Under the pieces are notes generated by a model. It ran no database searches, was not told the origin of the DNA, and worked only from the letters and a program-made list of their open reading frames with translations. Source: an uncultured Treponemataceae bacterium (GTDB taxonomy: Bacteria; Spirochaetota; Spirochaetia; Treponematales; UBA12059). Taken from it: DNA of 63,502 bases. Positions 8,804-25,497 of this stretch are shown one piece after another. The stretch is taken from positions 1-63,502 of the forward strand of contig CAZVTR010000006.1 in NCBI GenBank assembly GCA_964630305.1. The letters are read 5' to 3'. Positions within the stretch are counted from its first letter, which is position 1; every line of letters starts with the position of its first letter. The translations under genes were made by a program, and so were the position numbers.

Positions 8804-10197
8804 GGCAGATGCACTCCGGCTTTAGATAAGAGCTTGCGTGCTGCTTTGTTAGCAGCTTCTGCAAGTGCTTCTTCATCGATATTAACAAGTTTTCCCCGTG
8901 ATACAACAATGGAGCCATTAACTATAAGATAATCTACTCCATGATTATAACCGGAAAACAGCAATGCTGCAGGCGGATCAGACAGCGCTCCTGCATATTC
9001 AAGTTTGCTGAGATCAAACAGTGCAATATCTGCTAATGAACCTTCTTCCAGTGTGCCCGCATGTGGGAAACCGAGTATGCGAGCTCCGCCTTCTGTAGCA
9101 ATGCCAAAGATTTCTCGTGCTGTACTGCCTGTTGCGCCATATCGTACGCGCTGGAGCAAAAGAGCTTGCCGCGCTTCACCAAGCATATCTGAGCTGTCAT
9201 TAGATGCAGAGCCATCAACAGCGAGTCCGACGGGTATACCTTTATCGAGCATTTCGCGCACTCTGCAGATACCAGATGCTAACCGCATATTAGAGGCAGG
9301 GCAGTGTGCAATGCCGGTTTGATAGCGTGCTAATGTATCAAGTTCTTCATCGGTAAAGTGAATACCATGAGCGTACCACACATCCGGTCCAATAAATTCA
9401 CAATCCTCCATTACTTTGAGCGGGCGTCTACCGTAAACTCTCATGCAATATTCATCTTCGTCTGCTGTTTCTGCTAGATGTGTGTGAAGCCGAGCTCCAT
9501 ACTTGCGTGCAAGCCTCGCAGATTCTTTCATGAGCTTCTCTGATACCGAAAACGGAGAACAGGGAGCAAGCGCAAGTTTTCTCATTGCATCAGGCGCAGG
9601 ATCGTGGTAGCGCTTAATAGCTTCTTCGGATTGAATGAGTATGGTCTCTTCATCCTGGACCACAGTGTCCGGCGGCAGCCCTCCGTCTTTTTTTGAGCGA
9701 GACATAGAGCCGCGGGTTGGTGCAAAGCGTATTCCTATTTCAGACGCAGCTTTAAACTGGAGACCGGGCAGATCGTCTTTGAAATCAACAGGATAAAGAT
9801 AGTGGTGATCGGTAGAAAGTGTACAGCCTGTTTTGGCAAGCTCAGCAAGGGCTAATTTGCTCGACAGGTATACAGCCTCCTCATCAATACCTTTCCAGAT
9901 TTCATAGAGATACACGAGCCAGGTAAAGAGCTTTGCATTTTGTACAGCAGGAACATTTCGTGTAAGCGTCTGGTAAAAATGATGGTGAGTGTTTACCATA
10001 CCTGGCATGACAAGATGTTTTGATGCATCGATTGTAGTTGTTCCTGCTGGTACTGTAATGGCTGGAGCTATCTTTGCAATTCTGTTTCCATCTATGAATA
10101 TGTCGACACCATGTAAATCGGTTTCAAGCGATCCTGCTTGCTTGCCGCTTCCGTAGTGAGACTTGAGTACCCAGAAGCAGTTTTTAAGGAGTATCAC
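8797..10197 (-). CDS. 8-oxoguanine deaminase family amidohydrolase
   Basis: 'NTHHHFYQTLTR', 'APCSPFSVS', 'HTHLAET', 'HCPASNMRLASG', 'AVDGSASND'; GTG start. Confidence 0.85.
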   Translation of the reverse strand: MILLKNCFWVLKSHYGSGKQAGSLETDLHGVDIFIDGNRIAKIAPAITVPAGTTTIDASKHLVMPGMVNTHHHFYQTLTRNVPAVQNAKLFTWLVYLYEIWKGIDEEAVYLSSKLALAELAKTGCTLSTDHHYLYPVDFKDDLPGLQFKAASEIGIRFAPTRGSMSRSKKDGGLPPDTVVQDEETILIQSEEAIKRYHDPAPDAMRKLALAPCSPFSVSEKLMKESARLARKYGARLHTHLAETADEDEYCMRVYGRRPLKVMEDCEFIGPDVWYAHGIHFTDEELDTLARYQTGIAHCPASNMRLASGICRVREMLDKGIPVGLAVDGSASNDSSDMLGEARQALLLQRVRYGATGSTAREIFGIATEGGARILGFPHAGTLEEGSLADIALFDLSKLEYAGALSDPPAALLFSGYNHGVDYLIVNGSIVVSRGKLVNIDEEALAEAANKAARKLLSKAGVHLPW

Positions 10198-11651
10198 CGC
10201 AAAACCTCCGCATTAAAATCTTCAATGAGTTTATCAAGCTGAGCAGTTTGTTTGTGCAAGTTACCCCAGTATGATCGATAATCATCCCACTGAGCTCTCA
10301 GTTCATCGAGTGATTTTCCAAGCTGTTCAATCCAGGTAAAGTATTTAAGCTGATGTATTCGCCGTCTATCTGCATGGGTAAGATCGGCTACATAATCTAC
10401 AGAGAGCCGCTGGAGCATATCAAAATCTTTATCAGCCTGGCGCTGCGTGTAGGGGCCGCGTTCCTGTGTGAGCTCTTGCAGTCTTGAACCATAGAGCTGG
10501 AGTGAATCGGTAAATACAGTGAGCACGATATCGTGTTCTCCAAGTTCGTAATATTTGGCCGCTTTAATTGCAGCAACAAGGTTGCCAATGCCTGAAATAC
10601 CAATGAGATCGAGATTGTCTACAACAGCTTGAGGGATACCGTTTTCTTTGAGCACTTCCCGACCAGCTTTTTCATTAAACAACCGGAGGAGCCGCATTGG
10701 AATTTCATCGTCAACAGCTACTGCAACATCGGTATCACGGAGATTGTGTATCCAGGGAATATGTTTATCACCAATGCCTTCAATGCGGTGACCGCCAAAA
10801 CCATTTTCAAGAATAGTGGGGCATTGCAGCGCTTCACCAACGCCTACGCGGGTACCCGCAAAGTGTTCTTTGAGGTAGCTTCCTGCGCCGAGCGTTCCGG
10901 CAGAGCCGGAGCTGAACACGGAAAGCGCCAGGTAGTCATTGCCTCGGTTAAGTTTATTGTATACTTCTTCGAGCGCTGGTCCTGTCACTGCATAGTGCCA
11001 GAGGTGGTTGGGAAGCTGATCAAATTGGTTAAAGATGACTGCGTCTGGCCGGGTTTTTTCCAGTTCGACGCATTTGTCAAAAATTTCTTTAACATTGGAT
11101 TCACAGCCTGGAGTTGCTATGACTTCTTCTGCCATAGTTTTAAGCCATTCAAAACGCTCTCGTGACATTTCTGCAGGTAAAATAGCAATTGATGGGCAGG
11201 AAAGGAGCCGGCTTATATAGGCTCCGCCGCGGCAGTAATTGCCAGTAGAAGGCCATACCGCTTTTTTAGAGGTCGGATCAAAACGGCCGGTAATTAGTTC
11301 CGGAACCAGGCAGGAATAAGCGGCTCCTACTTTATGCGCACCAGTTGGAAACCACTTGCCAACTATTGCTGCTATGCGTGCTTTTGTCCCTGTGAGTGTT
11401 CTGGGAAGTTCAAAATAATTAACTGGTCCAAAAGCGCCGCCTTGTTCTTTGGGTTCATTGTGCCAGGTTACACGAAAAAGATTTCTGCTGTGTACATCCC
11501 AAAGGCCGATAGATTTGAGTTCCTGTACAATTGATGCAGGAATCAATGTGGGATCTTTCATCTGCGCATAGGTGGGAAGCAGAATACCCTTTTCTTTACA
11601 GCGCTCTATGTTTTTGCGCCGCTGGCTTTCGTTAATTCGTAAATCGATCAT
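10194..11651 (-). CDS. Uncharacterised fold-type II PLP-dependent enzyme (cysteine synthase/beta family) with long C-terminal extension
   Basis: PLP lysine region 'FPTGAHKVGA', 'PSTGNYCRG', 'SSGSAGTLG', 'HRIEGIGDKHIPW'; 485 aa. Confidence 0.8.
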   Translation of the reverse strand: MIDLRINESQRRKNIERCKEKGILLPTYAQMKDPTLIPASIVQELKSIGLWDVHSRNLFRVTWHNEPKEQGGAFGPVNYFELPRTLTGTKARIAAIVGKWFPTGAHKVGAAYSCLVPELITGRFDPTSKKAVWPSTGNYCRGGAYISRLLSCPSIAILPAEMSRERFEWLKTMAEEVIATPGCESNVKEIFDKCVELEKTRPDAVIFNQFDQLPNHLWHYAVTGPALEEVYNKLNRGNDYLALSVFSSGSAGTLGAGSYLKEHFAGTRVGVGEALQCPTILENGFGGHRIEGIGDKHIPWIHNLRDTDVAVAVDDEIPMRLLRLFNEKAGREVLKENGIPQAVVDNLDLIGISGIGNLVAAIKAAKYYELGEHDIVLTVFTDSLQLYGSRLQELTQERGPYTQRQADKDFDMLQRLSVDYVADLTHADRRRIHQLKYFTWIEQLGKSLDELRAQWDDYRSYWGNLHKQTAQLDKLIEDFNAEVLR

Positions 11652-11692: not shown

Positions 11693-12928
11693 TTACTGCA
11701 GTCCAAGCCCTTTTGCTGCTGATGCTATATCTTTTAGGCCGCTCCCGGTAACTAAGAGGATTACTACAGCGGATTTTGGTATTTCAGAAGAAGCTTTTTT
11801 GAAACCTGCAAGCACGGTGGCAGAACTTGGTTCTGCAAACACACCAGTTAAGCTGGCTAGTTCTTTTTGTGCTTCAAGAATTTCACTGTCAGAGACAGTC
11901 ACGGTTTTGCCGTTGTACTTGTTGAGCTGCTTGAGTGCGTGGTAACCATTTCTGGGAACATCGACAGAAATAGAATCTGCAAGCGTAGTGCTGGGAACAA
12001 CATCAAAGTACTTGCGCCAGGGATGCTCTTCGTGCGGAGCACCTGCAAACTTGTTGCTGGTTTTATCATACAGCACAGCCTTTTTATCGGATTTAAGCCG
12101 TTCATACGCACGAGCGAGCGCGCTTGAGCCTTCTGCCTGGCATGCCCACAGTGTCGGCATTTTACGAATAAATTCGAACTCATACATTTCTTCAAAACCC
12201 TTATAGAGCCCTGATAGTATGACGCCGTCACCCGCAGGAACAAATACATGATCCGGGTGGATAAGACTGCAGATTTCTAAAGCCGCAGTCTTTTTCCCCT
12301 CAATAGTGAGCGGATTGTACGCAGTATTTCTACAGAGCACATTGTGCTCTTTACAGTACGCAAGACATTCATCGAATGCTTTATCGTAGGTGCCATCTAC
12401 CTCAATAAGTTTTGCACCATACTGCAGTACTTGAATGCGTTTAGCGATAGGTGCTGTTTTTGGGAGAAAAACAGTGATATTCAACCCGGCTCCTGCGCCG
12501 ATACCGGCCATGCTGGAAGCTGCATTGCCGGTGCTGGCGAGCGCTATTTCCTTAATGCCATGCTGAAGCGCAAAACCTGCAACTAAATAGGATGCTCGAT
12601 CTTTATACGAAGCGGTTGGTTCACAGGTGTCGTCTTTGATGTAGAGCTTATCGAACCCATACTTTGTTTGAAGCCGGAATGGACTGTGCATCGGCGTATA
12701 GCCAACTTGCACTTGCGGCTGGAAATCGTATGGTACAGGGTCGGGAAGATCCTCTTCCAGTTGCAGAATTTTTTTTCGTTCTTTGGGACTAACTTCGATT
12801 GCGCATTCCAGTATACCGCGCAGAGGCTCATCTGGTTTCTGATATGCGCTGCATTCATCACAGACATAGACGCCTGGCTCGTGCGGGAACTCTTTTCCGC
12901 ACTCACTGCATCTGTACTTCCATTTCAT
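11693..12928 (-). CDS. Threonine-synthase-like fold-type II PLP enzyme
   Basis: N-terminal Zn-ribbon 'CSECG..CDECS', 'EPTASYKDR', 'ASTGNAASS', 'VPAGDGVILSG', 'AEPSSA', 'LVTGSGLKD'. Start moved to ATG 12928 (RBS GAGGAG). Confidence 0.8.
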   Translation of the reverse strand: MKWKYRCSECGKEFPHEPGVYVCDECSAYQKPDEPLRGILECAIEVSPKERKKILQLEEDLPDPVPYDFQPQVQVGYTPMHSPFRLQTKYGFDKLYIKDDTCEPTASYKDRASYLVAGFALQHGIKEIALASTGNAASSMAGIGAGAGLNITVFLPKTAPIAKRIQVLQYGAKLIEVDGTYDKAFDECLAYCKEHNVLCRNTAYNPLTIEGKKTAALEICSLIHPDHVFVPAGDGVILSGLYKGFEEMYEFEFIRKMPTLWACQAEGSSALARAYERLKSDKKAVLYDKTSNKFAGAPHEEHPWRKYFDVVPSTTLADSISVDVPRNGYHALKQLNKYNGKTVTVSDSEILEAQKELASLTGVFAEPSSATVLAGFKKASSEIPKSAVVILLVTGSGLKDIASAAKGLGLQ

Positions 12929-12932
12929 GTGG

Positions 12933-14141
12933 TTACTCCTCGATAAAATAGGGTAGCGCTGCATAAAAAGCTGCAGCTCTCCATAAATCATCTACCCGGG
13001 TAACCTCATTTGGTGCATGCGCTTGTGCTTCATCTCCTGGTCCAAAACCGATGCAGGGGATACCATGGCGGCCTGCAACAGCTACACAGTTTGTGGAAAA
13101 AGTCCATTTATCAACTACAGGTTTACTTCCAAATACTGCTTCATGTGCTTTAATGCCGCTCTGCACGAGCGGATGTGTCTCGGGGAATTTCCATGTTGGG
13201 AAATAGAGCTCCTGAGAGTATTGTTTACCGGTCCAGCTGGGAGTATTGTAATCGGGGATAAGAATCTCAGCGTCGGTAATACCAGCCTTTGCAAGAGCAT
13301 CCTGTACCTGCTTAACAGCAATTTCTTTGGTTTCACCCCAGGTGAGCCTTCTGTCGAGGTAGAGCATAGCCTGATCCGGGACAGCGCACTGTGAGGGACC
13401 GTGAACATCGATTTTAGAAACAACGACGGTACCCTTTCCAAGGAACCTGTCATCGTCGGGTTGGAGTTCGTCATTGAGCTTTTCTATTGCGAGTGCAGCT
13501 CGTGCTGCTTTATACGCAGCAGATATGCCGCGTTCGGGGGCAGAACCGTGACAGGATAAGCCTTTAATGTGGATTTCCATTTCCATTCTACCGCGATGGC
13601 CGCGATAGAGCTTGAGGGATGTCGGTTCAGTGGAGACAAAATAATCCGGTTTAACGTGTTCTTCTTCAATAAGATACTTCCAGCACATGCCATCACAGTC
13701 TTCTTCGATAATCGTGAATGAAAACCAGACGCTGAATTTGCCATTGTATGCAAGTTCCTTAAGAATCTTTCCCGCTGCAAGCATAGATGCTGCGCCGCCG
13801 GTTTGATCACTGGTACCGCGGCCATAGACTAAACCATTTTCAATGTCTCCAGAAAAAGGGTCTTTCTTCCACTGAGCGGGATCGCCAATACCAACCGTAT
13901 CGATATGAGCATCAATAACAAGCTTTTTAGGACCGTTTCCTACACGGGCAAGCAGATTGCCCAGGCCATCGATTTTTACTTCATCGAAACCAATTTCTTC
14001 ACAAATGGTTTTGAGCAGTATAATGCGATCTTTTTCCTTGTTGCTCATTGCAGGCACTTTAATGATTCGTGAAAGTGTCTGTGCTGTCCAATCTTTGTAA
14101 CTTTCTGCGAGTGTGCGGATAGTTTCTGCTGGTGTGTTCAT
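12933..14141 (-). CDS. ygeY: YgeY family M20 metallohydrolase
   Basis: 'DAHIDTV', 'GRGTSDQTGG', 'EEDCDG', 'RGHRGRME', 'FSTNCVA', 'HAPNE'. Confidence 0.92.
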   Translation of the reverse strand: MNTPAETIRTLAESYKDWTAQTLSRIIKVPAMSNKEKDRIILLKTICEEIGFDEVKIDGLGNLLARVGNGPKKLVIDAHIDTVGIGDPAQWKKDPFSGDIENGLVYGRGTSDQTGGAASMLAAGKILKELAYNGKFSVWFSFTIIEEDCDGMCWKYLIEEEHVKPDYFVSTEPTSLKLYRGHRGRMEMEIHIKGLSCHGSAPERGISAAYKAARAALAIEKLNDELQPDDDRFLGKGTVVVSKIDVHGPSQCAVPDQAMLYLDRRLTWGETKEIAVKQVQDALAKAGITDAEILIPDYNTPSWTGKQYSQELYFPTWKFPETHPLVQSGIKAHEAVFGSKPVVDKWTFSTNCVAVAGRHGIPCIGFGPGDEAQAHAPNEVTRVDDLWRAAAFYAALPYFIEE

Positions 14142-15436
14142 AATGCCTCCATTGCTTTCCAGAGCCTTTGTGCCTGGTTTTGTGTTTCTTGTACGAGATT
14201 TTTTGTATCGAGCTGGATTATTCTGTTTTTCATTACAAGCTTACCTGCGATCATTGTTCCTGAAATGTATGCAGGGGAAAGTCCAAATGCCATGTGACCC
14301 ATAAAGTTTTCGGAAATAAGCGGTGTCGGGGGTTCATAGTCCCAAAAGGTAATATCAGCAGCGTACCCTGGAGCTATATAGCCAAACTTGTTATCGGGGA
14401 AGTACCGATTTAGGATTTTATTGCCATTCCAGAGCATACCGATGAAATCATTCATGTATAGTGGTCCGCCTGCATCCCGATGTTTATAGAAAGCGCATAT
14501 AGCTTCAGTAACCATGTCACTTCCGATGCCATCAGTGCCAAGTGCAACATTTTTATAACTTGGCAGAGCTTCGTTGTATCCAACATGGTTATTCATATTG
14601 GAACGGGCATTGTGAATAAGGAAAGCATCATGAGCATTGAGCTTTTCGATTTCAGAAGCTGTTAGGTAGATGCCGTGTGCAATAATAGTTTTAGAAGACA
14701 AAAGTTCAGCCCGTTCAAGCCGATCAACAATGTCGAGTCCATACTGATACCGTGAATGCACAGCATCATATTTATCTTCTGCAGCATGGATATGGAGCCC
14801 TGATTCCGTTTCGCGGACAGCCTCGCTCAGCATAGCCAGTGTTGTGTTGTTAATAGTAAAGAGTGCATGAGCGCCAATTGATCCTCTCAGGAGGGGATGG
14901 TGAGCGGTTTTTTTTGCGAATCGAATGTTTTCGGCAATCCCTGCTTCTGCGCCTGCATTGCCATTGCGATCAGTTGTCTCATAACAGAGAACACCGCGGA
15001 GTCCGGTGAGCTCAAACCCTTCCGCAATGCGATCGAGCGATGCATCGATACAGTTCGGACTCGCATGATGATCAATTACAGCGGTAACACCGTGCCGGAT
15101 AGCATGCAGTGCGCCGGCAATACCGCTGGCGCGTATCATATCGGCGTCGAGTGCTCTATCGAGACGCCACCAGAGATTATTGAGCTGCTGCACAAAATCT
15201 TTTGACGGAGGAACAGGTGCCATGAGTCCGCGGGCCAGTGCAGAGTAAAAGTGATTATGCGAACACACAAGACCAGGGCTGATATACGGGCTTGTGATAC
15301 TCTCAGCGTCCTGATAGCGGGCTTTGAGTCCTTTGCCGACTTCTTTGATATGCGTGCCTTCGATGAGTACATCGAGAGGTTCTGATACCGATATGGGGTT
15401 AAAATTAAGTATCTTTGTGTTTTCTATGAGTATCAT
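14138..15436 (-). CDS. ssnA: SsnA amidohydrolase
   Basis: 'CSHNHFYSALARG', 'WWRLDRALD', 'IDHHASP', 'HNARSNMNNHVG', 'LGTDGIGSDM'. Confidence 0.92.
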   Translation of the reverse strand: MILIENTKILNFNPISVSEPLDVLIEGTHIKEVGKGLKARYQDAESITSPYISPGLVCSHNHFYSALARGLMAPVPPSKDFVQQLNNLWWRLDRALDADMIRASGIAGALHAIRHGVTAVIDHHASPNCIDASLDRIAEGFELTGLRGVLCYETTDRNGNAGAEAGIAENIRFAKKTAHHPLLRGSIGAHALFTINNTTLAMLSEAVRETESGLHIHAAEDKYDAVHSRYQYGLDIVDRLERAELLSSKTIIAHGIYLTASEIEKLNAHDAFLIHNARSNMNNHVGYNEALPSYKNVALGTDGIGSDMVTEAICAFYKHRDAGGPLYMNDFIGMLWNGNKILNRYFPDNKFGYIAPGYAADITFWDYEPPTPLISENFMGHMAFGLSPAYISGTMIAGKLVMKNRIIQLDTKNLVQETQNQAQRLWKAMEAL

Positions 15437-18400
15437 CGGTTTTGCTCCTTGTTGTACAGCTCGGTTCGAGCAAGCAAGTATCGGTGGTTTGTGAAAAGCT
15501 CTCGCGCAGCAAACAAAAAGGGCGCTGATTGAGCGTCACCTGTTGTGTTCCATGCTTCAAATGTCAGTACAGCGGGTTTGGCTTTTTGTTCGGTTCGCAG
15601 AATGAGATTGGGTTGTTCCGCTTTTCCAAAAAATGCAAAACCGGTGTTGGAACTTGCTTCAAGTTCCTGTTTAGTGTCAAAGAGCGTGATTTTGTCTTTG
15701 CAAGGTTCGCCGTTGTAGGGACAAAAAAAGGAACAGTTGCCGCATTCATTGCAGAGTGCATCGATGTGGAGAATTTGAATAGGCTGCTTAAATGGACCCC
15801 CCGGTATCAAGGTTACAGGCAATGCAAAGTTAGCACGGTTGGGACAAGTTTCTACACAACGTAAACACATAACATCACAGGAAAGGCAGCGCTGAGCTTC
15901 ATTGGTTATAAAATTTTTATCACGAGGGTCGGTTTTAGTTTGATAAGCGCCTCGTTTCATGCGGATTAGTTCGAGTTCTGGATTGGTATGCGGTGTTTCT
16001 GTTAGGCTGTCAACCGGATCTATGCCGGCAATGCGCAGTATTGCAAAGGCTGCTTTTTTGCCGTCGGCTTCGGCAGCAATAATGCTTGAGGGGCCGCGTC
16101 GTAAATCTCCAATGACAAATACTTCTTCGTTTGAAAGACTCATCATGGTTTCTGGATTGCAGAGCGGGTATCCTCGTTCATGGGTTACCTTAAAATGATC
16201 AAGCAGCTGCGTATCAGCTGTTTCTCCGATTGCAGAAATAATGAGGTCACAGGGTTTGAGCTCGGTAATATCAGATGGATACGGGACACGTCTGCCGTCA
16301 TCGCCAGGTTTTCCGAGCAGCATTTTCCGAATTACTATATAGGGGCGTTCTTTTTTGATAACGGCTTCAGGGAGAGAGAGTTCAAGCAGCGTAACACCAT
16401 CGGCAAATGCTGCCTCAAGTTCTTCTTTGTCGGCAGGCATTTCTTCTCTCGTCCTTCGGTATGCAATGTATACATCAGGGCGCCAGGGAAGCCGCGCGGC
16501 TATGCGCGCCGCATCCATTGCGGTATTCCCGCCGCCTATGATAATTATTGTATTTGCGTTTTGATATTGCTCCATAAAGCTTCGGGTTTTTTCTCGTTCT
16601 AGATGGAGTGTTTTTAATAGATCCAAGGCAGTAATTACCGGAATAGTGCAATTTTTTATGTCGATTGGTTTAGATACAGTTGCTCCGCTGGCAAGCACAA
16701 TAGAGGTATAGCCTTGCTCCTTAAGCTCACTGTATGTTGGGTTTGCATTTTTAATAAAAACAGCACCTAATGCCTGAATACGTTCGATATCTTTTTGAAG
16801 CGACTCTTTTGTAATACGGAATTTAGGTATCACGGAAGCAGGTATACCGCCGATGCTGGATGTTTGTTCAAAGACGGTAACAGGATAGCCATTGAGCGCA
16901 AGGTAATGAGCGCATGCAAGTCCGGCAGGTCCTGATCCAAGTATTGCTGTTTTACCCTTATCGAGTACGGGTACTTTTGTTTTTGGCTTGCTGTGAGCTG
17001 TCAGAGCACAGCGATGTTTGATGTCGCGTATTTCAATTGGACCCTCATAGTCATTGCGCGAACACGAGTACATGCACTGGTGATCACAGAGGATACCCGT
17101 AATGTTCGGCAAAGGGTTATCTTTATAGATGATTTCGAGACCTATATCGGCCTTATGTTCTGCAAGTGCGCGAATATACTGAGGTGCTTTTTGCATTGCG
17201 GGGCATGCTTCGATACAGGGTGCTGCAAAACAATCGGATAGCGGCAACTCTTTGTTAATGTACACGGTACCTGTTTTATATGAGCGCTGATAGTATGGTT
17301 TGTTAAAAACACTGTCTGCGAGTAAATGGATGTGTTCAGAATCTGGTTGGGATGCATGCTCTTCTAAAAGTCCTTCTGTGGCTGTTTCTGCAATAGTGAG
17401 GAGCCGCTGGTAACCACCGGGTTTGAGGATATCAGTTACAACGGTGAGCGGCCCAAGTCCAGCTTCGATACATTGCTTAGCATTATATGAAGCTATTCCT
17501 CCGCAAAACGAAAGCGCACTTAGATTAGGAAGCGAATCGATAAGTTCTGATGCTAGCCGTATTGTAATAGGGAAGAGCGCACGTCCAGACATATATCGTT
17601 CTGCACCGGGAAGTCTGTTTGTATTGTTGATGTTAGCCAGTGTATTAGAGAGCTTAACACCAAACCAAGTTCCTTCATTGTTGGCAAGCTGTGACAGATT
17701 TTCAATGAGCTTAATTGCATCTTCAAATTGGAGATCATGTTCAAAGGTTTCGCGTTTTAATTCAATGTTTGTCCAGCCCAGCTTATTGAGGATGCTTCGC
17801 ACTTTAAGGAAACCCAGCAAAGTTGGATTAAGCTTGATGTATGTAGGTAATTTTTTCTCTTTAATGAGATAGCTTCCGATCTGCTCAATTTCATGAGAGG
17901 GACAGCCATGCATTGTAGAGAGCGTTATCGAATGAATTGGCGAATCTGAAAGGTTTGCTATGTATGCCTGTGCCTTTTCCCTAACGTGTTCACCAAAAAT
18001 GGCCTGACAACTGGAACTGGTTAAAGCATCAAGTGTTTCAGCAATAATAGTTTTCATTATTGGGAGTTTCCAGGGATTACGCATACCTTCAATAAAGGAG
18101 TCTACTTTTTGTGATTTTATGCCTTCCAGCGTATAACCGGCTGAAATATTAAAAATAAAATCTTGAGCAGGAATATCCATCAGTATTGAGAGGGTTTTTA
18201 TAGCAATCCATCCTCGAAGATACTCTTCCATGGCTTCTTCGACGAGGAGTTCTGTTGACCACTCGACATTGTGTCCTTCATCGAGCGCATCGATGCATGG
18301 TTTATCGAGTTCGAGACGATCATTTATTTGTACTGTTTTAAGCTCGAATACGCGAGCGCTGCAGAGCCAGCCCGCAATGAGATTAGGGGCAATCTGTGTG

Positions 18401-18597
18401 TGCGGCCCAGCTGCGAGTCCCGCAGGAATCGAAATGCGGGTGTTATAAACGGTAAATCCGGGAGATTTTTGCACCAGTACCTTCATTGCATCGATGCAAA
18501 ACGCAGGTATTTCAAAAATTGTTTTTTTTGCCCGATATTCACCGAACATATGTTCAAAGAGTGCTCTCATTGACGTTGTTTTCATAATTTTGCTCAT
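15433..18597 (-). CDS. ygfK: YgfK flavin/Fe-S oxidoreductase ('putative selenate reductase')
   Basis: 'AAGPHTQIAPN', 'LKTVQINDRL', 'GVKLSNTL', 'GSGPAGLA', 'GGGNTAMDAAR', C-terminal ferredoxin Cys motifs. Start set to ATG 18597 (ATGA overlap with the upstream stop). Confidence 0.92.
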   Translation of the reverse strand: MSKIMKTTSMRALFEHMFGEYRAKKTIFEIPAFCIDAMKVLVQKSPGFTVYNTRISIPAGLAAGPHTQIAPNLIAGWLCSARVFELKTVQINDRLELDKPCIDALDEGHNVEWSTELLVEEAMEEYLRGWIAIKTLSILMDIPAQDFIFNISAGYTLEGIKSQKVDSFIEGMRNPWKLPIMKTIIAETLDALTSSSCQAIFGEHVREKAQAYIANLSDSPIHSITLSTMHGCPSHEIEQIGSYLIKEKKLPTYIKLNPTLLGFLKVRSILNKLGWTNIELKRETFEHDLQFEDAIKLIENLSQLANNEGTWFGVKLSNTLANINNTNRLPGAERYMSGRALFPITIRLASELIDSLPNLSALSFCGGIASYNAKQCIEAGLGPLTVVTDILKPGGYQRLLTIAETATEGLLEEHASQPDSEHIHLLADSVFNKPYYQRSYKTGTVYINKELPLSDCFAAPCIEACPAMQKAPQYIRALAEHKADIGLEIIYKDNPLPNITGILCDHQCMYSCSRNDYEGPIEIRDIKHRCALTAHSKPKTKVPVLDKGKTAILGSGPAGLACAHYLALNGYPVTVFEQTSSIGGIPASVIPKFRITKESLQKDIERIQALGAVFIKNANPTYSELKEQGYTSIVLASGATVSKPIDIKNCTIPVITALDLLKTLHLEREKTRSFMEQYQNANTIIIIGGGNTAMDAARIAARLPWRPDVYIAYRRTREEMPADKEELEAAFADGVTLLELSLPEAVIKKERPYIVIRKMLLGKPGDDGRRVPYPSDITELKPCDLIISAIGETADTQLLDHFKVTHERGYPLCNPETMMSLSNEEVFVIGDLRRGPSSIIAAEADGKKAAFAILRIAGIDPVDSLTETPHTNPELELIRMKRGAYQTKTDPRDKNFITNEAQRCLSCDVMCLRCVETCPNRANFALPVTLIPGGPFKQPIQILHIDALCNECGNCSFFCPYNGEPCKDKITLFDTKQELEASSNTGFAFFGKAEQPNLILRTEQKAKPAVLTFEAWNTTGDAQSAPFLFAARELFTNHRYLLARTELYNKEQNR

Positions 18598-20036
18598 GCG
18601 TACCCCCACTGCAGATGTTTTCCATACCCTGGTTGAACAGTAATGCAATTTTGAAGATTGTCTGAATTACTTCGAGCATCCCAGACAATTGTGCCGCGAA
18701 CCATGGTTATTTCTATAAAACCATCAAAAGTCTTTCCTTGAAATGGTGTTACTGTTCCTTTACTGAGCAATTTATCGCCCTGAACGGTGTATTTTTTTTG
18801 CGGATGAACAAATACCAGATCAGCATCTTTCCCTGGTTCTATCGAGCCTTTACCGTTATCAAGTCCGTAGCGGCGAGCTGCGTTTCCTGCAGTGAGAGCC
18901 GTGAACTGCTTTAGGCTGATCCTGCCTGACTGGTATCCTTCTGAATACAAATAAGGAAAGAGTGTCCCTGTGCCTGGTATACCGCCGTAATCAGTCCAGA
19001 TAGAGCCGGTCTGTTTTTCTTCATGCGGTGCAGGAGCATGGTCGCTTGCAACAAATGAAAATACGTTTCGGCTTATAAGGCGCCAGAGTTTTTCGGTTTG
19101 TCCCAATGATTTAACAGGAGGAGCGGTTTTAAGTGCTGAACCGTGTGTTGCAAAATCTTCACGTGAAAATGCCAGGTAGTGCGGGCATGTCTCTGCCGTA
19201 GCGCCAGCATTGACTGCTAGCTCTGCAGCTTCTGCAGTGCCGACATGTACAATGTGAAGTGCTTGTGTGTAACCCCAGGCAAGAGCGCAGGCCGATGCAA
19301 CCGCAGAGAGCTCTGCAAGCTCACAGCGTGCATTGACATAATCATCCCACTCCGGAGAGCGGTTTTCTTGTTCTGCACGAGCTTTCCAGTACTGGGTTGC
19401 AGGCGCAATAAAAAGCGGATCTTCTGCGTGGAGGAGAAGCGGTCGTTTGAGTTCTGCAGATTTCACGAGCGCTTTTCTAAAGCGAGCATGATCCACAGCA
19501 GTAAAGGTGTCCATACCTGAGATGAAGTAGCACTTAAACCCGACGACATAGGGTGCGAGAGCTTCCATTGCTTCCAGCATGATGTCTTCGTGATGAGCGG
19601 TGGTGACTGTTTGTAATGAGCCAGGGAATGATGCGAGGATGGTTTCAGGGAGCATTCCCGAAACACCGCCAAAGAGTGCAAAATCGATAATGCTCTGTGA
19701 TCGTATGTGCGAAAGCTTGTACAAAAGCGCTTCTTTTGATATGACCGGCGGAATGCTCGTGCATGGCATATCAATTACCGTTGTTATACCGCCTCGTGCT
19801 GCAGCCATAGAACCATGGTAAAAATCTTCTCGGTGTGTAAAGCCAGGTTCATCAAAATGCACATGGGGATCGATGGCCCCAGGGAAAACTTCATAGCCTT
19901 CTGCTTCTAAAACTGTTTCATTGCTGGCTTCGATGGAATCGGCAATAGCTTTTATTTTGCCATTGGCAATATGAATATCTCTTTTTTGAAGCTGGTCTTG
20001 ATTGGGCAGTGCGACACGGCAATTTTTGATAATCAT
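18594..20036 (-). CDS. Allantoinase-like cyclic amidohydrolase (AllB/dihydroorotase superfamily)
   Basis: 'GAIDPHVHFDEPG', 'GGITTVIDMP', 'GFKCYF', 'HAED', 'ETCPHYL', 'KTAPPVK', 'ASDHAP', 'YGGIPG'. Motifs resemble AllB more than HyuA/dihydropyrimidinase. Confidence 0.75.
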   Translation of the reverse strand: MIIKNCRVALPNQDQLQKRDIHIANGKIKAIADSIEASNETVLEAEGYEVFPGAIDPHVHFDEPGFTHREDFYHGSMAAARGGITTVIDMPCTSIPPVISKEALLYKLSHIRSQSIIDFALFGGVSGMLPETILASFPGSLQTVTTAHHEDIMLEAMEALAPYVVGFKCYFISGMDTFTAVDHARFRKALVKSAELKRPLLLHAEDPLFIAPATQYWKARAEQENRSPEWDDYVNARCELAELSAVASACALAWGYTQALHIVHVGTAEAAELAVNAGATAETCPHYLAFSREDFATHGSALKTAPPVKSLGQTEKLWRLISRNVFSFVASDHAPAPHEEKQTGSIWTDYGGIPGTGTLFPYLYSEGYQSGRISLKQFTALTAGNAARRYGLDNGKGSIEPGKDADLVFVHPQKKYTVQGDKLLSKGTVTPFQGKTFDGFIEITMVRGTIVWDARSNSDNLQNCITVQPGYGKHLQWGYA

Positions 20037-22354
20037 TATTGTTCCCCTTTCGGAGTGTGTGTGGTAACTGTAGCCGGGCTCACAACTAAATTGTCTAGAT
20101 ATCGCAGAGCTTTTTCGGGAGTCATTGGAAGATCATAGAAGAGTGTCCCTGTTGGGTTAGCGGCATGGAGCGCATCGAGTACAGCAAAATAACCGGCGAT
20201 GCCATACATGAATGGCGGTTCTCCTATGGCCTTCGAATTAGCGACTGTGTGCGGATTTGGTGCATCGATGATTTCAACAATCATCTCTGGCATAAAGTGA
20301 GCGTCAGGAACTTTATATGTAGAGAGCGTGTTTGCCAAAAGCCGGCCATCAGCGCTAAAGCAGAGCTCTTCTAAAGCTGACCAGCCAAGACCCTGTGCAA
20401 ATGCTCCTTCTATCTGCCCAATATCGATATCAGGTGCGATAGAGTTAGCAAGGTCATGAACAATCCATGCTGTATCAAAATGGTATGTGCCTTTGAGCAT
20501 ATCGACTGTTGCAGTAACTATTGCACAGCCGTATACATGATACGCAAATGGTCTGCCGTATTCTTTTTCCATGTCATAAAATAAATCTGGGGTGGCATAA
20601 AAAGCATGTGCGCTTAAATCGATTCTGCTTTCATATGCTTTTTTCACAATATCTTCAAATGAATAGCCTGTATCCTGTCCGGCTTTATCGGATGGTTTAA
20701 CATATACGAGCCTGCAATTAGAAAAATCGAGCTCTGTTTTAATGGTGTGAAGTATCTCTGCTGCAAGCAACAAAAGCCGCTCTTTTATTTGTTCTGCTGC
20801 GAGGCATGCAGCAGCGCCGTTAATATCGGTACCCGTGCTCGCAGCAGTGGGCTGTGTATTAGCAACGGTAGATGTTCTTGTAGTTTCAATTTTAACACGA
20901 GAATCCGGTATGCCTAAACAGCGCGCGGTGAGCAGCGCTATCTTGCGGTTTACTCCCTGTCCCATTTCAACAGCGCCGGTGCTTACGCTTACAGAACCGT
21001 CATGGTATACATGTACCAGTGCACCGCCTTGATTCATCATTAGTTTAGTAAAACTGATACCAAAGCAGATGGGTATACCTGCTGCGCCTTTTTTATAACG
21101 GCGGTTTTTGCTGTTAAACTCGTCAATTGCAGAACGGAGTTCACGCCAGTTTGCTAGCTCCATGCAGCGGGTTACTGTTGCTTCTGCACGTGCATCTTCA
21201 AGCCGCATACCGTAGTGCGTTCGATCATTAGTATGCACAAGATTTTTTAGCCTGAGTTCCATAGGATCCATGTTGAGTGCGTTTGCTGCTGCTTCTAGTG
21301 CGCTTTCTATGACAAAAAATCCCTGCGGACCGCCAAAGCCGCGGAAAGCGGTAAAGGGTACCAGATTTGTTCTGCACATAATGCCAGTTACTTTGACATT
21401 CGGGATGTGATACGCACCGCACGCATGAAACAATGTTCGCGGAATGATTGCTGGAGAAAGATCGGTAGCAGCGCCTGAATTCTGGTAATATACAGCTTCA
21501 AAAGCTCGTATGGTTCCGTCTTTAGAAAGTCCTATAGTAAAATCGCTTGAGTAGGGGTGACGCTTCCCGGTCGCCTGTAAGTCATCGCGCCGGTTAAGAT
21601 AGAGCTTTACGGGCCGTTTTGTTACATAGGCACCGAGCGCTGCAAGTGCTGCCCAGGCATTAGCTTGTTCCTCTTTGCCGCCAAAAGCACCGCCGAGGCG
21701 CCTTGTTTCGATTTCTATTTTATGCATCGGCAGACCGAGAATACGCGCAACAATCTGCTGAACGAGCGAAGGAGATTGTGTGCCTGCAATGATCCTCATG
21801 CCTCCCGAATCTTCCGGAACAGCTATGGCTCCTTGAGTTTCCAGGTAAACATGTTCCTGACCGCCCGAATCTACTCTTCCCGTTATAACAATATCGCAAT
21901 CTGCCAACGCCTGCTGTGTGTCGCCGCATTGCTGAATGCGGGGTTTGAGAATAACCTTACCTTGTGCATATGCCTCACGCGGATCGGTTATTGCGGGAAG
22001 CTCTTTTATATTAGTTATGGTAATTTTACTTAATGCTTTTCGCGCAAGGCTTTTTGTTTCGGCAAGAACAAGCGCCAGTACCTCTCCCTGATAGTGCCAT
22101 TCGTGTTCTGCAAGCAGAGGTTCATCATCCATGACCATGCCAAGTTCATTTTTCCCCGGTACATCCTGTGCGGTAAGTATCCGGACGGAAGGATGCACAG
22201 CGAGTGCTTCTGAGACATCAAGACCTGAATATGTTCCGTGAGCTGTTGGGGATAGAAGCGGCACTGCATGAAGCAGTGTTGATGCTTCCGGAAGATCATC
22301 AATATAGAGTGTAGTGCCAGTTACATGCGGAATACTGTCGGTATTGTAGTTCAT
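20036..22354 (-). CDS. xdhB: Xanthine dehydrogenase molybdopterin-binding subunit (Rhodobacter/Pseudomonas type)
   Basis: 'GGQEHVYLE', 'RRLGGAFGGKE', 'GKRHPY', 'AFRGFGGPQG', 'VEMGQG', 'GQIEGAFAQG', 'SKAIGEPPF'. Confidence 0.93.
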   Translation of the reverse strand: MNYNTDSIPHVTGTTLYIDDLPEASTLLHAVPLLSPTAHGTYSGLDVSEALAVHPSVRILTAQDVPGKNELGMVMDDEPLLAEHEWHYQGEVLALVLAETKSLARKALSKITITNIKELPAITDPREAYAQGKVILKPRIQQCGDTQQALADCDIVITGRVDSGGQEHVYLETQGAIAVPEDSGGMRIIAGTQSPSLVQQIVARILGLPMHKIEIETRRLGGAFGGKEEQANAWAALAALGAYVTKRPVKLYLNRRDDLQATGKRHPYSSDFTIGLSKDGTIRAFEAVYYQNSGAATDLSPAIIPRTLFHACGAYHIPNVKVTGIMCRTNLVPFTAFRGFGGPQGFFVIESALEAAANALNMDPMELRLKNLVHTNDRTHYGMRLEDARAEATVTRCMELANWRELRSAIDEFNSKNRRYKKGAAGIPICFGISFTKLMMNQGGALVHVYHDGSVSVSTGAVEMGQGVNRKIALLTARCLGIPDSRVKIETTRTSTVANTQPTAASTGTDINGAAACLAAEQIKERLLLLAAEILHTIKTELDFSNCRLVYVKPSDKAGQDTGYSFEDIVKKAYESRIDLSAHAFYATPDLFYDMEKEYGRPFAYHVYGCAIVTATVDMLKGTYHFDTAWIVHDLANSIAPDIDIGQIEGAFAQGLGWSALEELCFSADGRLLANTLSTYKVPDAHFMPEMIVEIIDAPNPHTVANSKAIGEPPFMYGIAGYFAVLDALHAANPTGTLFYDLPMTPEKALRYLDNLVVSPATVTTHTPKGEQ

Positions 22355-23754
22355 GGCAGCAATTCCTCCTCAAGTTCAGGCCATAACCGTAGAGCATGCG
22401 CAAGCACCAATCTGAAAACCAAACGTTTACGGTATTCCGAGGTACCTCGTACATCGCTAATTGGCGTCGCACTAGTTTGTGCTTTCTGAGCTAGATGCTG
22501 TACGATCTCAGAAGAAGATTTCTTTCCTATTATAAGAGCAGATGCTTCTTCTAGTAAAAGCGGTACTGGTGCTACTCCTCCAAACGAAAGTCTGGCTTGT
22601 TGTATTGTGCCATCATCAGCTTCTTCTACTGCGAATGCTGAGTTTACCGTGGCAATATCGAGGTGTTCTCGTTTAGATACTTTTTCAAAGCTGATTCTTA
22701 GTGGCTTTGCTGGGATCACAATAGCATCAATTTGCTCATCTGTATTTATTGCTAGTTTTTTATAACTGATAAAAGCTTTCTGGAGCGGCTGAGATCGTTT
22801 TGTGCCGCGACTAGTTTTTATGCTGAGCTCAGCACCCAGAGCAAGAAGCATAACTGTCATATCGGCAATGGGTGAAGCATTGGCAATATTGCCAGCAAGC
22901 GTAGCACGGTTGCGGATAGGGATGCTTGCAATGTATTGTTCATACTGTTCTATGCCCGGGAAAGTTGTTCGTATATGTTCTGAATCAAAGAAGTCGCGAA
23001 TAGTGACAGCAGAACCAATGATGAGCTTTCCATGTTCATGACGTATTTGATGAGCGGGCGGTTCGAGATCGGTGTAGCGCGGAACAAGTTCCTGGTCAGG
23101 ATCCGGGTTTTGCACAAAAAAGTCAGTACCGCCGCCCAGTGTTCTTGTTGTGGGAATAGTTTCCCGTATCGGTTCGGGAATTGAATGCATGGTGTCTGCA
23201 AGAGCGCGGGGAAGTATGCCTTCCTGTGCAAGAAAAGCCAGCCTGGTATGGAAATCGGCGGGCACTTCAGGAAAGGACTGCACCAGTTTAGCTGCAGCTC
23301 TGCGGATACTGCCGTAACCTGTGCACCGGCAGAGGTTCCCGTCGATTGCTGTGATTGCATGGCGGTAATCGATGGGGCCGCCTTCAATAAACAGTGCGGT
23401 GAGTGCTACAACGAAGCCAGGACTGCAAAAACCGCACTGGCTTGCTCCTGTTTCTAAAAATGCCTGCATTACCGGAGTAAGCCCAGCCTCGGCAATGCCT
23501 TCAATGGTGATAATATGTTTACCATCGAGATCGGAAAGTCCAAGCGTGCAAGATGTGACAGCATGATACACGGGTTTACCATCAATGGTTTCTCCCAGTA
23601 TAACCATGCATGCGCCACAATCGCCTTCGCGGCAGCCCTCTTTAGTTCCTTTGAGCTGGGCAGTATTGCGTATCCAATCAAGAGCAGGCTGTTCCCTATC
23701 GAGCGTTATCGTATGCTCTTGTGTGTTCAATCTAAACCGTATTGTTCTGTGCAT
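22351..23754 (-). CDS. xdhA: Xanthine dehydrogenase small subunit (2x[2Fe-2S] + FAD)
   Basis: 'GTKEGCREGDCGAC', 'SQCGFCSPG', 'GNLCRCTGY', 'GGGTD', 'IRNRATLAGNIANASPIAD', 'KVSKREHLDI'. Confidence 0.92.
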   Translation of the reverse strand: MHRTIRFRLNTQEHTITLDREQPALDWIRNTAQLKGTKEGCREGDCGACMVILGETIDGKPVYHAVTSCTLGLSDLDGKHIITIEGIAEAGLTPVMQAFLETGASQCGFCSPGFVVALTALFIEGGPIDYRHAITAIDGNLCRCTGYGSIRRAAAKLVQSFPEVPADFHTRLAFLAQEGILPRALADTMHSIPEPIRETIPTTRTLGGGTDFFVQNPDPDQELVPRYTDLEPPAHQIRHEHGKLIIGSAVTIRDFFDSEHIRTTFPGIEQYEQYIASIPIRNRATLAGNIANASPIADMTVMLLALGAELSIKTSRGTKRSQPLQKAFISYKKLAINTDEQIDAIVIPAKPLRISFEKVSKREHLDIATVNSAFAVEEADDGTIQQARLSFGGVAPVPLLLEEASALIIGKKSSSEIVQHLAQKAQTSATPISDVRGTSEYRKRLVFRLVLAHALRLWPELEEELLP

Positions 23755-23757
23755 ACG

Positions 23758-25497
23758 TTATTCCTCTACAAAAAGATCAACAAGTTTAAACGACTCAACA
23801 TCAACGAGACCTTGATCGGTGAGCTTGAGTGATGGTATTACCGGCAGAGCCATAAACGATAACAGCATAAGCGGGGATACTTTTTGAATTCCCTCTTGTT
23901 CAAAGTATGCAGAAAATCTTTCAAGCGATGCTAATACTTCCGATATGGATTTATCGCTCATAAGCCCAGCAATAGGCAGAGGAAGTTCAGCAATTATGGT
24001 ATCCCGATCGGTGATAACATAGCCGCCTTTCATTGCATTTAATCGTTTTACTGCTTTAAAAATGGAAGTGTCATCGGCTCCTGCAACGATAATGTTATGA
24101 GAATCATGGCTTACGGTTGAACCGATTGCTCCGTGCTTTAAACCAAGCCCGCGGATAAAGCCCTTGCCGATTGATCCAGTGCCTCCGTGTCGTTCTATAA
24201 CAAAAAGCTTTAACAAATCGCGAGCTGGATCTGCAACACACAAACCATTGTCTACCGCAGGTTCCAGTATCGATTTTCCCGTCACGATTGAGCCGGGCAC
24301 AGCTTCGATGACGCGGATTTTTTTACCAATATATGGAATGGCAAACGCCGATTCATCGAGCCACTTAACATTGACAGAGTCTCTAACGCGGGGGAGCGAG
24401 CCAGCAGTGCTAAATAATTCTGTCCATGCTGATGTTTTTTCCCCGTGTTCTGCAATGATTGTTCCTTGCTTAATAACTTTTTTTACGGAAAATGGCTCAT
24501 TGTGGTCAAAAACAATAAAGTTTGCTTTGTAGCCGGGAGCAATAGAGCCGCAGCGCCGCAGTCCAAAGTAGAGCGAAGGATTATGCGCCGCCATTCGCAG
24601 TGCATCTATAAGCGGGATTCCCTTTTCCTGCAGAATTCGGACAGCTGCATCAATGTGGCCCTCTTTGACAATATCATGCGGGTGTCTGTCATCGGTACAG
24701 AGCATCATGCGGTGTACGGTGTCATGGTTCATTGCAGGAATAAGGTGCTCAAGATCACGAGCAGATGATCCAAACCTAGCCATTATCCACATACCTTTTG
24801 ATAACTTTTCCAGCGCTTCTTCTGGCGTTGTGGCCTCGTGGTCACTCCTGATGCCAGAGATGACATACGCTGAAAGTTCTTTGCCAGATAGACCCGGTGA
24901 ATGTCCGTCAATTACTTTGCCATTTTCCCAAAATAGAGAAAGCTTATCACGGAGCTGCAGATCTCCTGAGAGAATTCCTGGATAGTTCATCACTTCGCCC
25001 AAGCCAAGTATGCGAGGCTCCCGTGTGAACGGCGCAAGATCCGATGCATAGAGCGATGCTCCTGCTGTATCAAACGATGTCGCGGGGACACAGCTGGGTG
25101 CCATGAAAAAAATCTCAAGAGGTATCCCCTCAGACGCTTTGAGCATCCAGTGTATGCCGTCATAACCGAGCACATTAGCGATTTCATGCGGATCAGCAAT
25201 AACTGTTAGTGTTCCATGCGGCGTAACCAGGTTGCAAAATTCCCGAGGATGCACCAGGCTTGATTCTATATGAACATGGGCATCGACAAGGCCCGGGCTT
25301 ACACATAAGCCGCCGAGATCAATACATTGTTTTACAGGTAAATTTTCACTGATGCCTACAATATAACCTTTGTATACGGTGATAGAAGCAGGCCCACGTA
25401 TCGTATTAGTAAAAAAATCGGTATAGAAGCAGTTAGTATAGCAAATATCAGAAGATATTTTCCCCAGAGCTGCTTCAATTATTTCATAAGGAAGCAT
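23758..25497 (-). CDS. ade: Adenine deaminase
   Basis: 'DAHVHIESS', 'DPHEIANV', 'LGEVMNYPG', 'DGHSPG', 'SDHEA', 'CTDDRHP', 'SHDSHN', 'LSFMALPVIPSLKLTD'. Confidence 0.95.
   Translation of the reverse strand: MLPYEIIEAALGKISSDICYTNCFYTDFFTNTIRGPASITVYKGYIVGISENLPVKQCIDLGGLCVSPGLVDAHVHIESSLVHPREFCNLVTPHGTLTVIADPHEIANVLGYDGIHWMLKASEGIPLEIFFMAPSCVPATSFDTAGASLYASDLAPFTREPRILGLGEVMNYPGILSGDLQLRDKLSLFWENGKVIDGHSPGLSGKELSAYVISGIRSDHEATTPEEALEKLSKGMWIMARFGSSARDLEHLIPAMNHDTVHRMMLCTDDRHPHDIVKEGHIDAAVRILQEKGIPLIDALRMAAHNPSLYFGLRRCGSIAPGYKANFIVFDHNEPFSVKKVIKQGTIIAEHGEKTSAWTELFSTAGSLPRVRDSVNVKWLDESAFAIPYIGKKIRVIEAVPGSIVTGKSILEPAVDNGLCVADPARDLLKLFVIERHGGTGSIGKGFIRGLGLKHGAIGSTVSHDSHNIIVAGADDTSIFKAVKRLNAMKGGYVITDRDTIIAELPLPIAGLMSDKSISEVLASLERFSAYFEQEGIQKVSPLMLLSFMALPVIPSLKLTDQGLVDVESFKLVDLFVEE

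Follow-up and report, generated by a model that had tools for sequence, protein, structure and literature searches.

An allantoinase-like cyclic amidohydrolase predicted to carry out the HyuA step in the reductive urate cluster of a Treponemataceae bacterium

Which enzyme opens the hydantoin ring in a reductive urate-degradation cluster that has an allantoinase-like protein and no HyuA? The question is raised by a stretch of 63,502 nucleotides from an uncultured Treponemataceae bacterium (contig CAZVTR010000006.1 of assembly GCA_964630305.1), referred to here in its full length as the window, in which a reductive (2,8-dioxopurine) urate-degradation cluster is present and includes the gene of P0001, a cyclic amidohydrolase of the type that we call ALN. 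From its genomic context we infer that P0001 probably opens ureidomethyl-hydantoin, the product of SsnA, to 2,3-diureidopropionate, which is the step of HyuA in other bacteria. Comparative genomics supports well the prediction that HyuA has been displaced, in a real and consistent way, by a non-orthologous (paralogous) enzyme that stands as a sister to the allantoinases, and P0001 is best described as belonging to a separate cyclic amidohydrolase family, sister to AllB, with a predicted HyuA-like working.

P0001, its active site and its place in the tree

P0001 is encoded by exactly one open reading frame (ORF; 18594..20036, minus strand, 480 aa), which coincides with the coordinates given in an initial annotation of the window, and all six motifs listed there were found in the protein: HFDEPG (residues 60-65), IDMP (88-91), GFKC (166-169), KTAPP (303-307), SDHAP (331-335) and YGGIPG (350-355). 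In Pfam it matches the general Amidohydro_1 and Amidohydro_3 domains and nothing narrower, the Amidohydro_1 score (PF01979; 79.4 bits, cut-off 25) placing it in the superfamily. The NCBIfam models scored as follows:

Allantoinase (PRK06189): 339.9 bits, cut-off 631
AllB (TIGR03178): 334.8 bits, cut-off 357.85, the curated equivalog level being missed narrowly
Dihydroorotase (DHOase; PRK02382): 311.7 bits, cut-off 452
pyrC_multi, class-I DHOase (TIGR00857): 236.8 bits, cut-off 279
D-hydantoinase (TIGR02033): 191.4 bits (186.9 in the whole-genome search), cut-off 393.25

By BLASTP, P0001 is 33% identical to E. coli AllB (230 bits) and 27% to E. coli HyuA (129 bits). When the sequences of solved structures were ranked against it, three allantoinases came first (217, 217 and 193 bits), followed by L-/D-hydantoinases and DHOases at no more than 155 bits. 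An AlphaFold2 (AF2) model of P0001, with a predicted local distance difference test score (pLDDT) of 87.2 and a predicted template-modelling score (pTM) of 0.90, has the TIM barrel and beta-sandwich of the cyclic amidohydrolase superfamily, and Foldseek returned as its best matches the allantoinases 8HFD (E. coli; TMq 0.85, 31% identity), 3E74 and 3HM7; the model reaches template-modelling scores (TM) of 0.82-0.86 with allantoinase and hydantoinase structures, dihydropyrimidinases being nearly as near in fold. The initial annotation had called the protein AllB/DHOase-like rather than dihydropyrimidinase-like, and NCBIfam, BLASTP, the solved-structure sequences and Foldseek agree on this. By family score, BLAST, structure search, fold and tree, P0001 is confirmed to be nearer to allantoinase than to HyuA/dihydropyrimidinase. 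It is not a bona fide AllB by score, by the residues invariant in AllB, by clade membership or by genomic context, and by score and clade membership it is not a HyuA. The TIGR03178 scores of nine other clade members range from 317 to 369 bits, two of the nine lying above 357.85, compared with 676 bits for E. coli AllB.

The binuclear metal centre of E. coli AllB (EC 3.5.2.5; PDB 3E74/8HFD) is formed by H59, H61, the carbamylated lysine Kcx146, H186, H242 and D315 (PMC9863593). The equivalent residues of P0001 (H58, H60, K168, H203, H264 and D332) are all in place and invariant in an alignment of 25 clade sequences, and because these six metal-centre residues are invariant P0001 is predicted to be catalytically competent. 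To AllB, its best sequence relative and sister clade, P0001 is therefore alike in fold and in all six metal-centre residues, including the lysine that is carbamylated, and the substrate of AllB is a 5-substituted hydantoin bearing a ureido group, like the one proposed for P0001.

In order to compare the pockets, 81 clade sequences were set against five AllB references, and positions were retained at which one residue occurs in at least 95% of the clade and another is uniform in AllB. Where AllB has N94, S317, W332 and Q339, at least 95% of the 81 sequences have T93, A334, Y350 and G357, with T93, A334 and Y350 found in 81 out of 81; further changes are C92 for L93, R69 for W70, T304 for C287, K309 for R292 and Y170 for F148. 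Asn94, Ser317 and Trp332 of AllB are active-site ligand contacts in docking models, and loop II is one of its two dynamic specificity loops (PMC9863593). In P0001 loop II falls about five residues short of its length in E. coli AllB, and the AF2 model predicts it poorly. The residue changes towards smaller side chains would fit a substrate one CH2 longer than allantoin. Concerning stereochemistry, the product of HyuA has been reported as (R) (bioRxiv 10.1101/2025.04.24.650524). By the Cahn-Ingold-Prelog (CIP) rules the exocyclic ureido nitrogen should outrank C4 in allantoin, so that (S)-allantoin would correspond spatially to a D-type (R)-5-substituted hydantoin; on the same rules an allantoinase-type pocket would accept (R)-ureidomethyl-hydantoin and give, as HyuA does, the (R)-product without inversion.

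For the phylogeny we used 22 clade members, E. coli AllB and HyuA, annotated AllB, HydA and DHOase sequences (from plasmid and chromid records) and 23 other spirochaete cyclic amidohydrolases, from which quick maximum-likelihood trees were built under the models LG+G4 and LG+C20+F+G4, with agreeing topologies. The P0001 clade is monophyletic (99) and groups with a second type from the spirochaete family f32 (100). Together the two are sister to bacterial AllB and not nested within it, with 95 and 92 in the Shimodaira-Hasegawa-like approximate likelihood-ratio test (SH-aLRT), and HydA/HyuA form a distinct clade with 100% support. Clustering with true HyuA, the outcome that the initial annotation had set against its own proposal, was rejected by the approximately unbiased (AU) test, in which the P0001 clade was joined to the HyuA subclade of urate clusters (p = 1.8e-6); placement of the clade beside E. 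coli AllB was rejected as well (p = 0.011), with a small AllB reference set. The P0001 clade appears to be of old standing, a separate sister group in which AllB-type positions have been remodelled, and not a recent recruit, and recruitment may have run in either direction.

The f32 sister group is about 40% identical to the clade, its proteins have 503-518 aa, and its genes lie directly 3' of an xdhD-like gene (L143:9944-13744 and L144:10711-14796); in f32 spirochaete genomes ssnA-ygeY-ygeW is found at a locus separate from the ALN-type gene. Two peculiarities of the P0001 sequence were also observed. An insertion of about 15-20 residues (residues ~128-150, window 19560-19650; modelled at pLDDT < 50) occurs in P0001 and in its 87% identical relative at L011 and is missing from the rest of the clade. 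A C-terminal tail that ends in the motif PG(Y/F)GK..L.WGY is common to the spirochaete members (in P0001 at window 18594-18650) and is missing from AllB, HyuA and the Fidelibacterota members.

The urate cluster in the window and in related genomes

The gene of P0001 belongs to an operon, a string of minus-strand genes (3882-25497) that holds XdhD, YgfK, SsnA, YgeY and YgeW, all over curated NCBIfam cut-offs. The genes, in the order of transcription, are the following (PLP, pyridoxal phosphate):

23758..25497, minus strand: adenine deaminase, first in the conserved block (TIGR01178, 575 bits, over cut-off)
22351..23754, minus strand: xdhA-like Fe-S/FAD subunit (TIGR02963, 313 bits; Pfam Fer2_2, FAD_binding_5, CO_deh_flav_C)
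20036..22354, minus strand: xdhB-like molybdopterin subunit (TIGR02965, 763 bits)
18594..20036, minus strand: P0001, ALN-type cyclic amidohydrolase, putative ureidomethyl-hydantoin hydrolase (ORF, motifs, NCBIfam, metal ligands, tree, AF2 model)
15433..18597, minus strand: ygfK, 2,8-dioxopurine reductase family (TIGR03315, 968 bits, over cut-off; match from residue 19 of the longest ORF)
14138..15436, minus strand: ssnA, amidohydrolase yielding ureidomethyl-hydantoin (PRK07203, 514 bits, and TIGR03314, 508 bits, both over cut-off; 47.5% identity to E. coli SsnA)
12933..14141, minus strand: ygeY, M20 ureido-group hydrolase (PRK13004, 498 bits, over cut-off)
11693..12991, minus strand: PLP enzyme 1, threonine-synthase-like, in the place of ygeX (PF00291; ThrC models below cut-off)
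10194..11651, minus strand: PLP enzyme 2, CysK/CBS-like, 485 aa
8797..10197, minus strand: 8-oxoguanine-deaminase-family amidohydrolase (PRK08203, 596 bits, over cut-off)
8000..8803, minus strand: ygfM-like FAD subunit (TIGR03312, 79 bits, a weak match)
5112..8003, minus strand: xdhD-type Mo/Fe-S subunit, urate to 2,8-dioxopurine (TIGR03313, 1122.8 bits, over cut-off; 49% identity to E. coli XdhD)
3882..5072, minus strand: ygeW, knotted carbamoyltransferase (PRK07200, 681 bits, over cut-off)

At the xdhB/P0001 junction the TAA stop overlaps the ATG start (TAATG), with a purine-rich ribosome-binding site ahead, and at the P0001/ygfK junction the TGA stop overlaps an in-frame ATG at 18597-18595 (ATGA), which is likely to be the start of ygfK and agrees with the start of the YgfK model. 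By these overlaps P0001 is translationally coupled to xdhB upstream and to ygfK downstream.

In the pathway described for E. coli and other bacteria, XdhD/YgfM convert urate to 2,8-dioxopurine (bioRxiv 10.1101/2025.05.19.654654; bioRxiv 10.1101/2025.04.24.650524; commentary PMC12990295). YgfK and SsnA then yield ureidomethyl-hydantoin as the major and 5-ureido-dihydrouracil as the minor product, both seen in vitro, and HyuA opens the two alike to 2,3-diureidopropionate, as the initial annotation had correctly assumed for ureidomethyl-hydantoin (bioRxiv 10.1101/2025.05.19.654654). YgeW, YgeY and YgeX complete the route to pyruvate (bioRxiv 10.1101/2025.05.19.654654; bioRxiv 10.1101/2025.04.24.650524; PMC12990295). 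By analogy, in the organism of the window XdhD/YgfM would reduce urate to 2,8-dioxopurine, YgfK and SsnA would turn this into 5-ureidomethyl-hydantoin (with 5-ureido-dihydrouracil as the minor isomer), P0001 would hydrolyse the cyclic amide to 2,3-diureidopropionate, and YgeW, YgeY and the two PLP enzymes would complete the pathway. The chemistry is plausible because the substrate is the one-carbon homologue of allantoin and the role of HyuA is known.

XdhD/YgfM, YgfK, SsnA, YgeY and YgeW of the published cluster (Li et al., 2025; Liu et al., 2025) are thus all present in the window, whereas HyuA is replaced by the ALN-type enzyme and YgeX by two other PLP enzymes, carbamate kinase (YqeA) and YqeB/YqeC were not found in the organism's own genome, and the operon has as extras XdhAB, adenine deaminase and the 8-oxoguanine-deaminase-family enzyme. 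HyuA of E. coli and Clostridium (YgeZ; TIGR02033, IPR011778) has in common with P0001 the superfamily, the chemistry and the neighbourhood (ygfK, ssnA, ygeY, ygeW, xdhD), and its reaction and product are those proposed for P0001; it differs in sequence (27% identity for the E. coli protein), in belonging to another major clade and in operon position. The "HyuA slot" of the initial annotation therefore holds as a predicted function but not as a position, the gene of P0001 lying between xdhB and ygfK and E. coli hyuA beside ygeY.

The genome to which the window belongs (G000; 2.34 Mb, 78 contigs, 96.7% complete) was searched for other candidates. No protein exceeded the D-hydantoinase or AllB cut-offs in the family-model search, P0001 being the sole strong match of its class, and with E. 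coli HyuA and AllB as tblastn queries it was again the sole match. An ORF on contig C5, considered as a second candidate, was rejected as an isoaspartyl dipeptidase. The tblastn search of the genome with E. coli proteins gave no YgeX, YqeA, YqeB, YqeC, AllA, AllC, AllD, AllE, AllW or Gcl, and the family searches gave no AllC, carbamate kinase, uricase or 5-hydroxyisourate (HIU) hydrolase. The remark of the initial annotation that the window has no uricase or other oxidative allantoin genes thus extends to the whole genome (AllA, AllC, AllD, AllE, uricase and HIU hydrolase not found). Genes for allantoate use (AllC, AllE, AllA, AllD) were found neither in the genome nor in the 80 related loci described below, the search for allantoicase being uninformative as its control stayed silent. 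Since no allantoate-degrading enzyme was found there, allantoate would have no outlet in this genome.

Some features of the genome concern neighbouring steps. YgeW (3882-5072) is present and a carbamate kinase (YqeA, YbcF, ArcC) was not found by tblastn or TIGR00746, so that the ATP-yielding step of the pathway may be absent, or carbamoyl phosphate may go to biosynthesis. The XdhD-type enzyme (5112-8003) is present, yet tblastn gave no match in the genome to E. coli YqeB/YqeC, markers of the selenium-cofactor trait.

The family of P0001 is large, with members 46-87% identical that are variously named allantoinase, dihydroorotase or amidohydrolase in the databases. Rectinema subterraneum SURF-ANA1 encodes an orthologue (L054:10001-11437). 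A scan of GTDB species genomes gave 80 loci encoding relatives (56 Spirochaetota, 11 Fidelibacterota (Marinimicrobia), 2 Bacteroidota and 11 unplaced). All 80 have at least one urate-cluster neighbour. Downstream sequence extends for at least 6 kb in 44 loci, and in 42 of these SsnA and YgfK occur together; none of the 80 contains another HyuA- or AllB-like gene, a YgeX, a YqeA or any Al* gene. P0001-type genes, unlike AllB, are thus never accompanied by allantoate-degrading genes and always by the reductive urate cluster. Two layouts were observed, ade-xdhA-xdhB-ALN-ygfK-ssnA-ygeY-PLP1-PLP2 in Spirochaetota and xdhD-ALN-ssnA-ygfK-ygeY-ygeW-PLP1 in Fidelibacterota and Bacteroidota; ALN is kept through this rearrangement, which argues for function rather than inherited order. 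The genomic associations mark the clade as one that serves the reductive (2,8-dioxopurine) route of urate breakdown specifically, and the genomes suggest that the swap of HyuA for an ALN-type enzyme recurs in at least three phyla (Spirochaetota, Fidelibacterota, Bacteroidota).

Two gene models were set aside. An apparent ALN-SsnA fusion in L071 was discarded because its ORF crosses a run of N (read as X), and a single XdhB-ALN ORF (P0121, L040:6839-10471, 1221 aa), known from one record and possibly due to a lost stop codon, was not used as evidence. At L147 (G110:C7, from the window's family) the open frames round ALN (689 aa) and SsnA (1048 aa) are far longer than the genes, either because neighbouring genes are fused or because stop codons are absent.

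The distribution was followed in 401 Spirochaetota genomes, which are interrelated, so that the counts serve as description and not as a statistical test. SsnA exceeds its cut-off in 56 of them; among these 56, a hydantoinase passes the TIGR02033 cut-off in 30 and the P0001 type (49-61% identity) occurs in 10, to which G110, with SsnA just below the cut-off, is added. The TIGR02033-positive hydantoinase and the P0001 type do not overlap in any genome, and in seven of the 11 P0001-type genomes there is no further TIGR02033 match at 1e-40. The canonical set, hyuA-yqeB-xdh-ygfK-ssnA together with ygeX-ygeY, is present in family f24. Three f18 genomes have their "HyuA" unlinked, and in G080 it adjoins a PydA-like gene; the ssnA clusters of these genomes are without a cyclic amidohydrolase, an arrangement that may be a third solution for ring opening; PLP1, ygeW and yqeA are present in the f18 ssnA-ygfK clusters (L153, L157, L167, L168). 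The ALN type and the PLP pair do not strictly go together, some clusters having PLP enzymes without ALN.

Alternative roles and the weight of the evidence

The initial annotation had proposed that an allantoinase homologue was recruited to the HyuA step or that it lets the pathway also accept allantoin. That the step is filled by this enzyme is what synteny in 80 loci, the two layouts, the lack of any other candidate and the presence of the rest of the pathway strongly argue for; a recent recruitment from AllB does not stand, the enzyme coming from an old, separate sister clade for which either direction is conceivable. Acceptance of allantoin found no support, the genome having no route for allantoate. 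Another reading is that P0001 is a genuine (S)-allantoin amidohydrolase for exogenous allantoin, kept in a purine operon only through shared regulation. By every measure no characterised family is nearer than allantoinase, the NCBI AllB cut-off is exceeded by two of nine other clade members and many relatives are annotated as allantoinase by JGI; the organism, however, lacks allantoate amidohydrolase, ureidoglycine/ureidoglycolate enzymes, the oxamate route and an allantoin transporter in its own genome, all four of N94, S317, W332 and Q339, invariant in the five AllB references, are changed, the clade lies outside the AllB crown (p = 0.011) and the gene is locked amid xdh, ygfK and ssnA in 80 loci, so that we regard this reading as very unlikely. 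An enzyme opening both ureidomethyl-hydantoin and allantoin seems equally improbable: the two substrates are one CH2 apart and the scaffold is allantoinase-like, but this genome would offer allantoate no onward route and the remodelled positions point to specialisation.

Somewhat less improbable, but still unlikely, is that P0001 acts in the same pathway on 5-ureido-dihydrouracil or on a lineage-specific SsnA product, as a functional neighbour of HyuA and not its exact equivalent. In vitro SsnA forms two products, each of which HyuA can open, the clade is near DHOase-type hydrolases of six-membered rings (PRK02382, 311.7 bits) and the SsnA proteins of the clusters are just 31-58% identical to reference SsnA. 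Against this, a 5-substituted hydantoin is the substrate of the closest relatives that have been characterised, the sequence holds nothing that separates the two substrates, and either isomer opens to 2,3-diureidopropionate, so that the role in the pathway would be unchanged. The possibility that P0001 is the organism's dihydroorotase for pyrimidine synthesis was rejected, with hardly any probability left to it. Several relatives are called "dihydroorotase" by NCBI and pyrC_multi gives 236.8 bits, but this is below the cut-off of 279, the context is that of a purine-catabolism operon in every locus, and the genome has another gene, type-II PyrC-like, on contig C22, so that P0001 is not required for this function; moreover, the position after the HxH motif, which is Arg in class-I DHOases, is Asp62 in P0001. 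The sole candidate for PyrC is this C22 gene, a type-II DHOase-like ORF of 308 aa (G000:C22:3656-4390; L094:1375-2301, minus strand) that covers positions 1-255 of the 341-position model with 224.8 bits (cut-off 293) and may be truncated or divergent.

Ring opening of ureidomethyl-hydantoin by P0001 remains the probable role, and several observations weigh against it or against parts of the argument. The AU test does not reject a union of the P0001 clade with the whole hydantoinase group (p = 0.35), which makes the order of the deep clades tentative, and for this reason the sister relation to AllB is not claimed as proven. Four of the 11 P0001-type genomes have an unlinked dihydropyrimidinase-like gene, below cut-off, that is potentially able to do the step, and a cyclic amidohydrolase is missing altogether from some ssnA clusters, meaning that a cluster-encoded enzyme is not obligatory. 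The argument from the pocket is built on docking contacts and not on a substrate complex, and on an AllB reference set of five sequences. Lastly, a natural fusion speaks for the role, P0122 (890 aa, on a 1.47-Mb contig), the one called protein that joins ALN (residues 1-441) to SsnA (516-879), but it is a single record, in which a stop codon may have been lost.

Meaning for ureide pathways

An allantoinase-like enzyme in the reductive urate pathway is not mentioned in the two primary papers, the commentary or the other literature searched. HyuA (by IPR011778 or by BLAST to C. sporogenes HyuA) is one of the markers in surveys of urate degraders in gut and environment, and Li et al. (2025) scored it by IPR011778 only (bioRxiv 10.1101/2025.05.19.654654). 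If P0001 acts as proposed, surveys that rely on this marker will miss the ring-opening step in Spirochaetota, Fidelibacterota and Bacteroidota clusters, and because names are inconsistent and the clade straddles the AllB cut-off, metabolic reconstructions may wrongly predict allantoin use or pyrimidine synthesis. The P0001 clade could also provide an alternative part for engineered uricolytic probiotics.

The P0001 clade and AllB would form a natural sister pair in which to study the discrimination between allantoin and its one-carbon homologue by a hydantoinase pocket. A more speculative idea, to which we give a rather low but not negligible chance, is that the enzyme of the HyuA step in anaerobes and the oxidative allantoinase are sister enzymes from one ancestral "ureido-hydantoin" hydrolase. 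If this were true, two otherwise unrelated urate pathways would share one homologous step, T/N 93, A/S 334, Y/W 350 and G/Q 357 together with the length of loop II would set the accepted ureide and, if the anaerobic form were the older, allantoinase would have been recruited from the reductive pathway and not the reverse. The P0001 clade would in this way link the oxidative and the reductive ureide pathways in their evolution.

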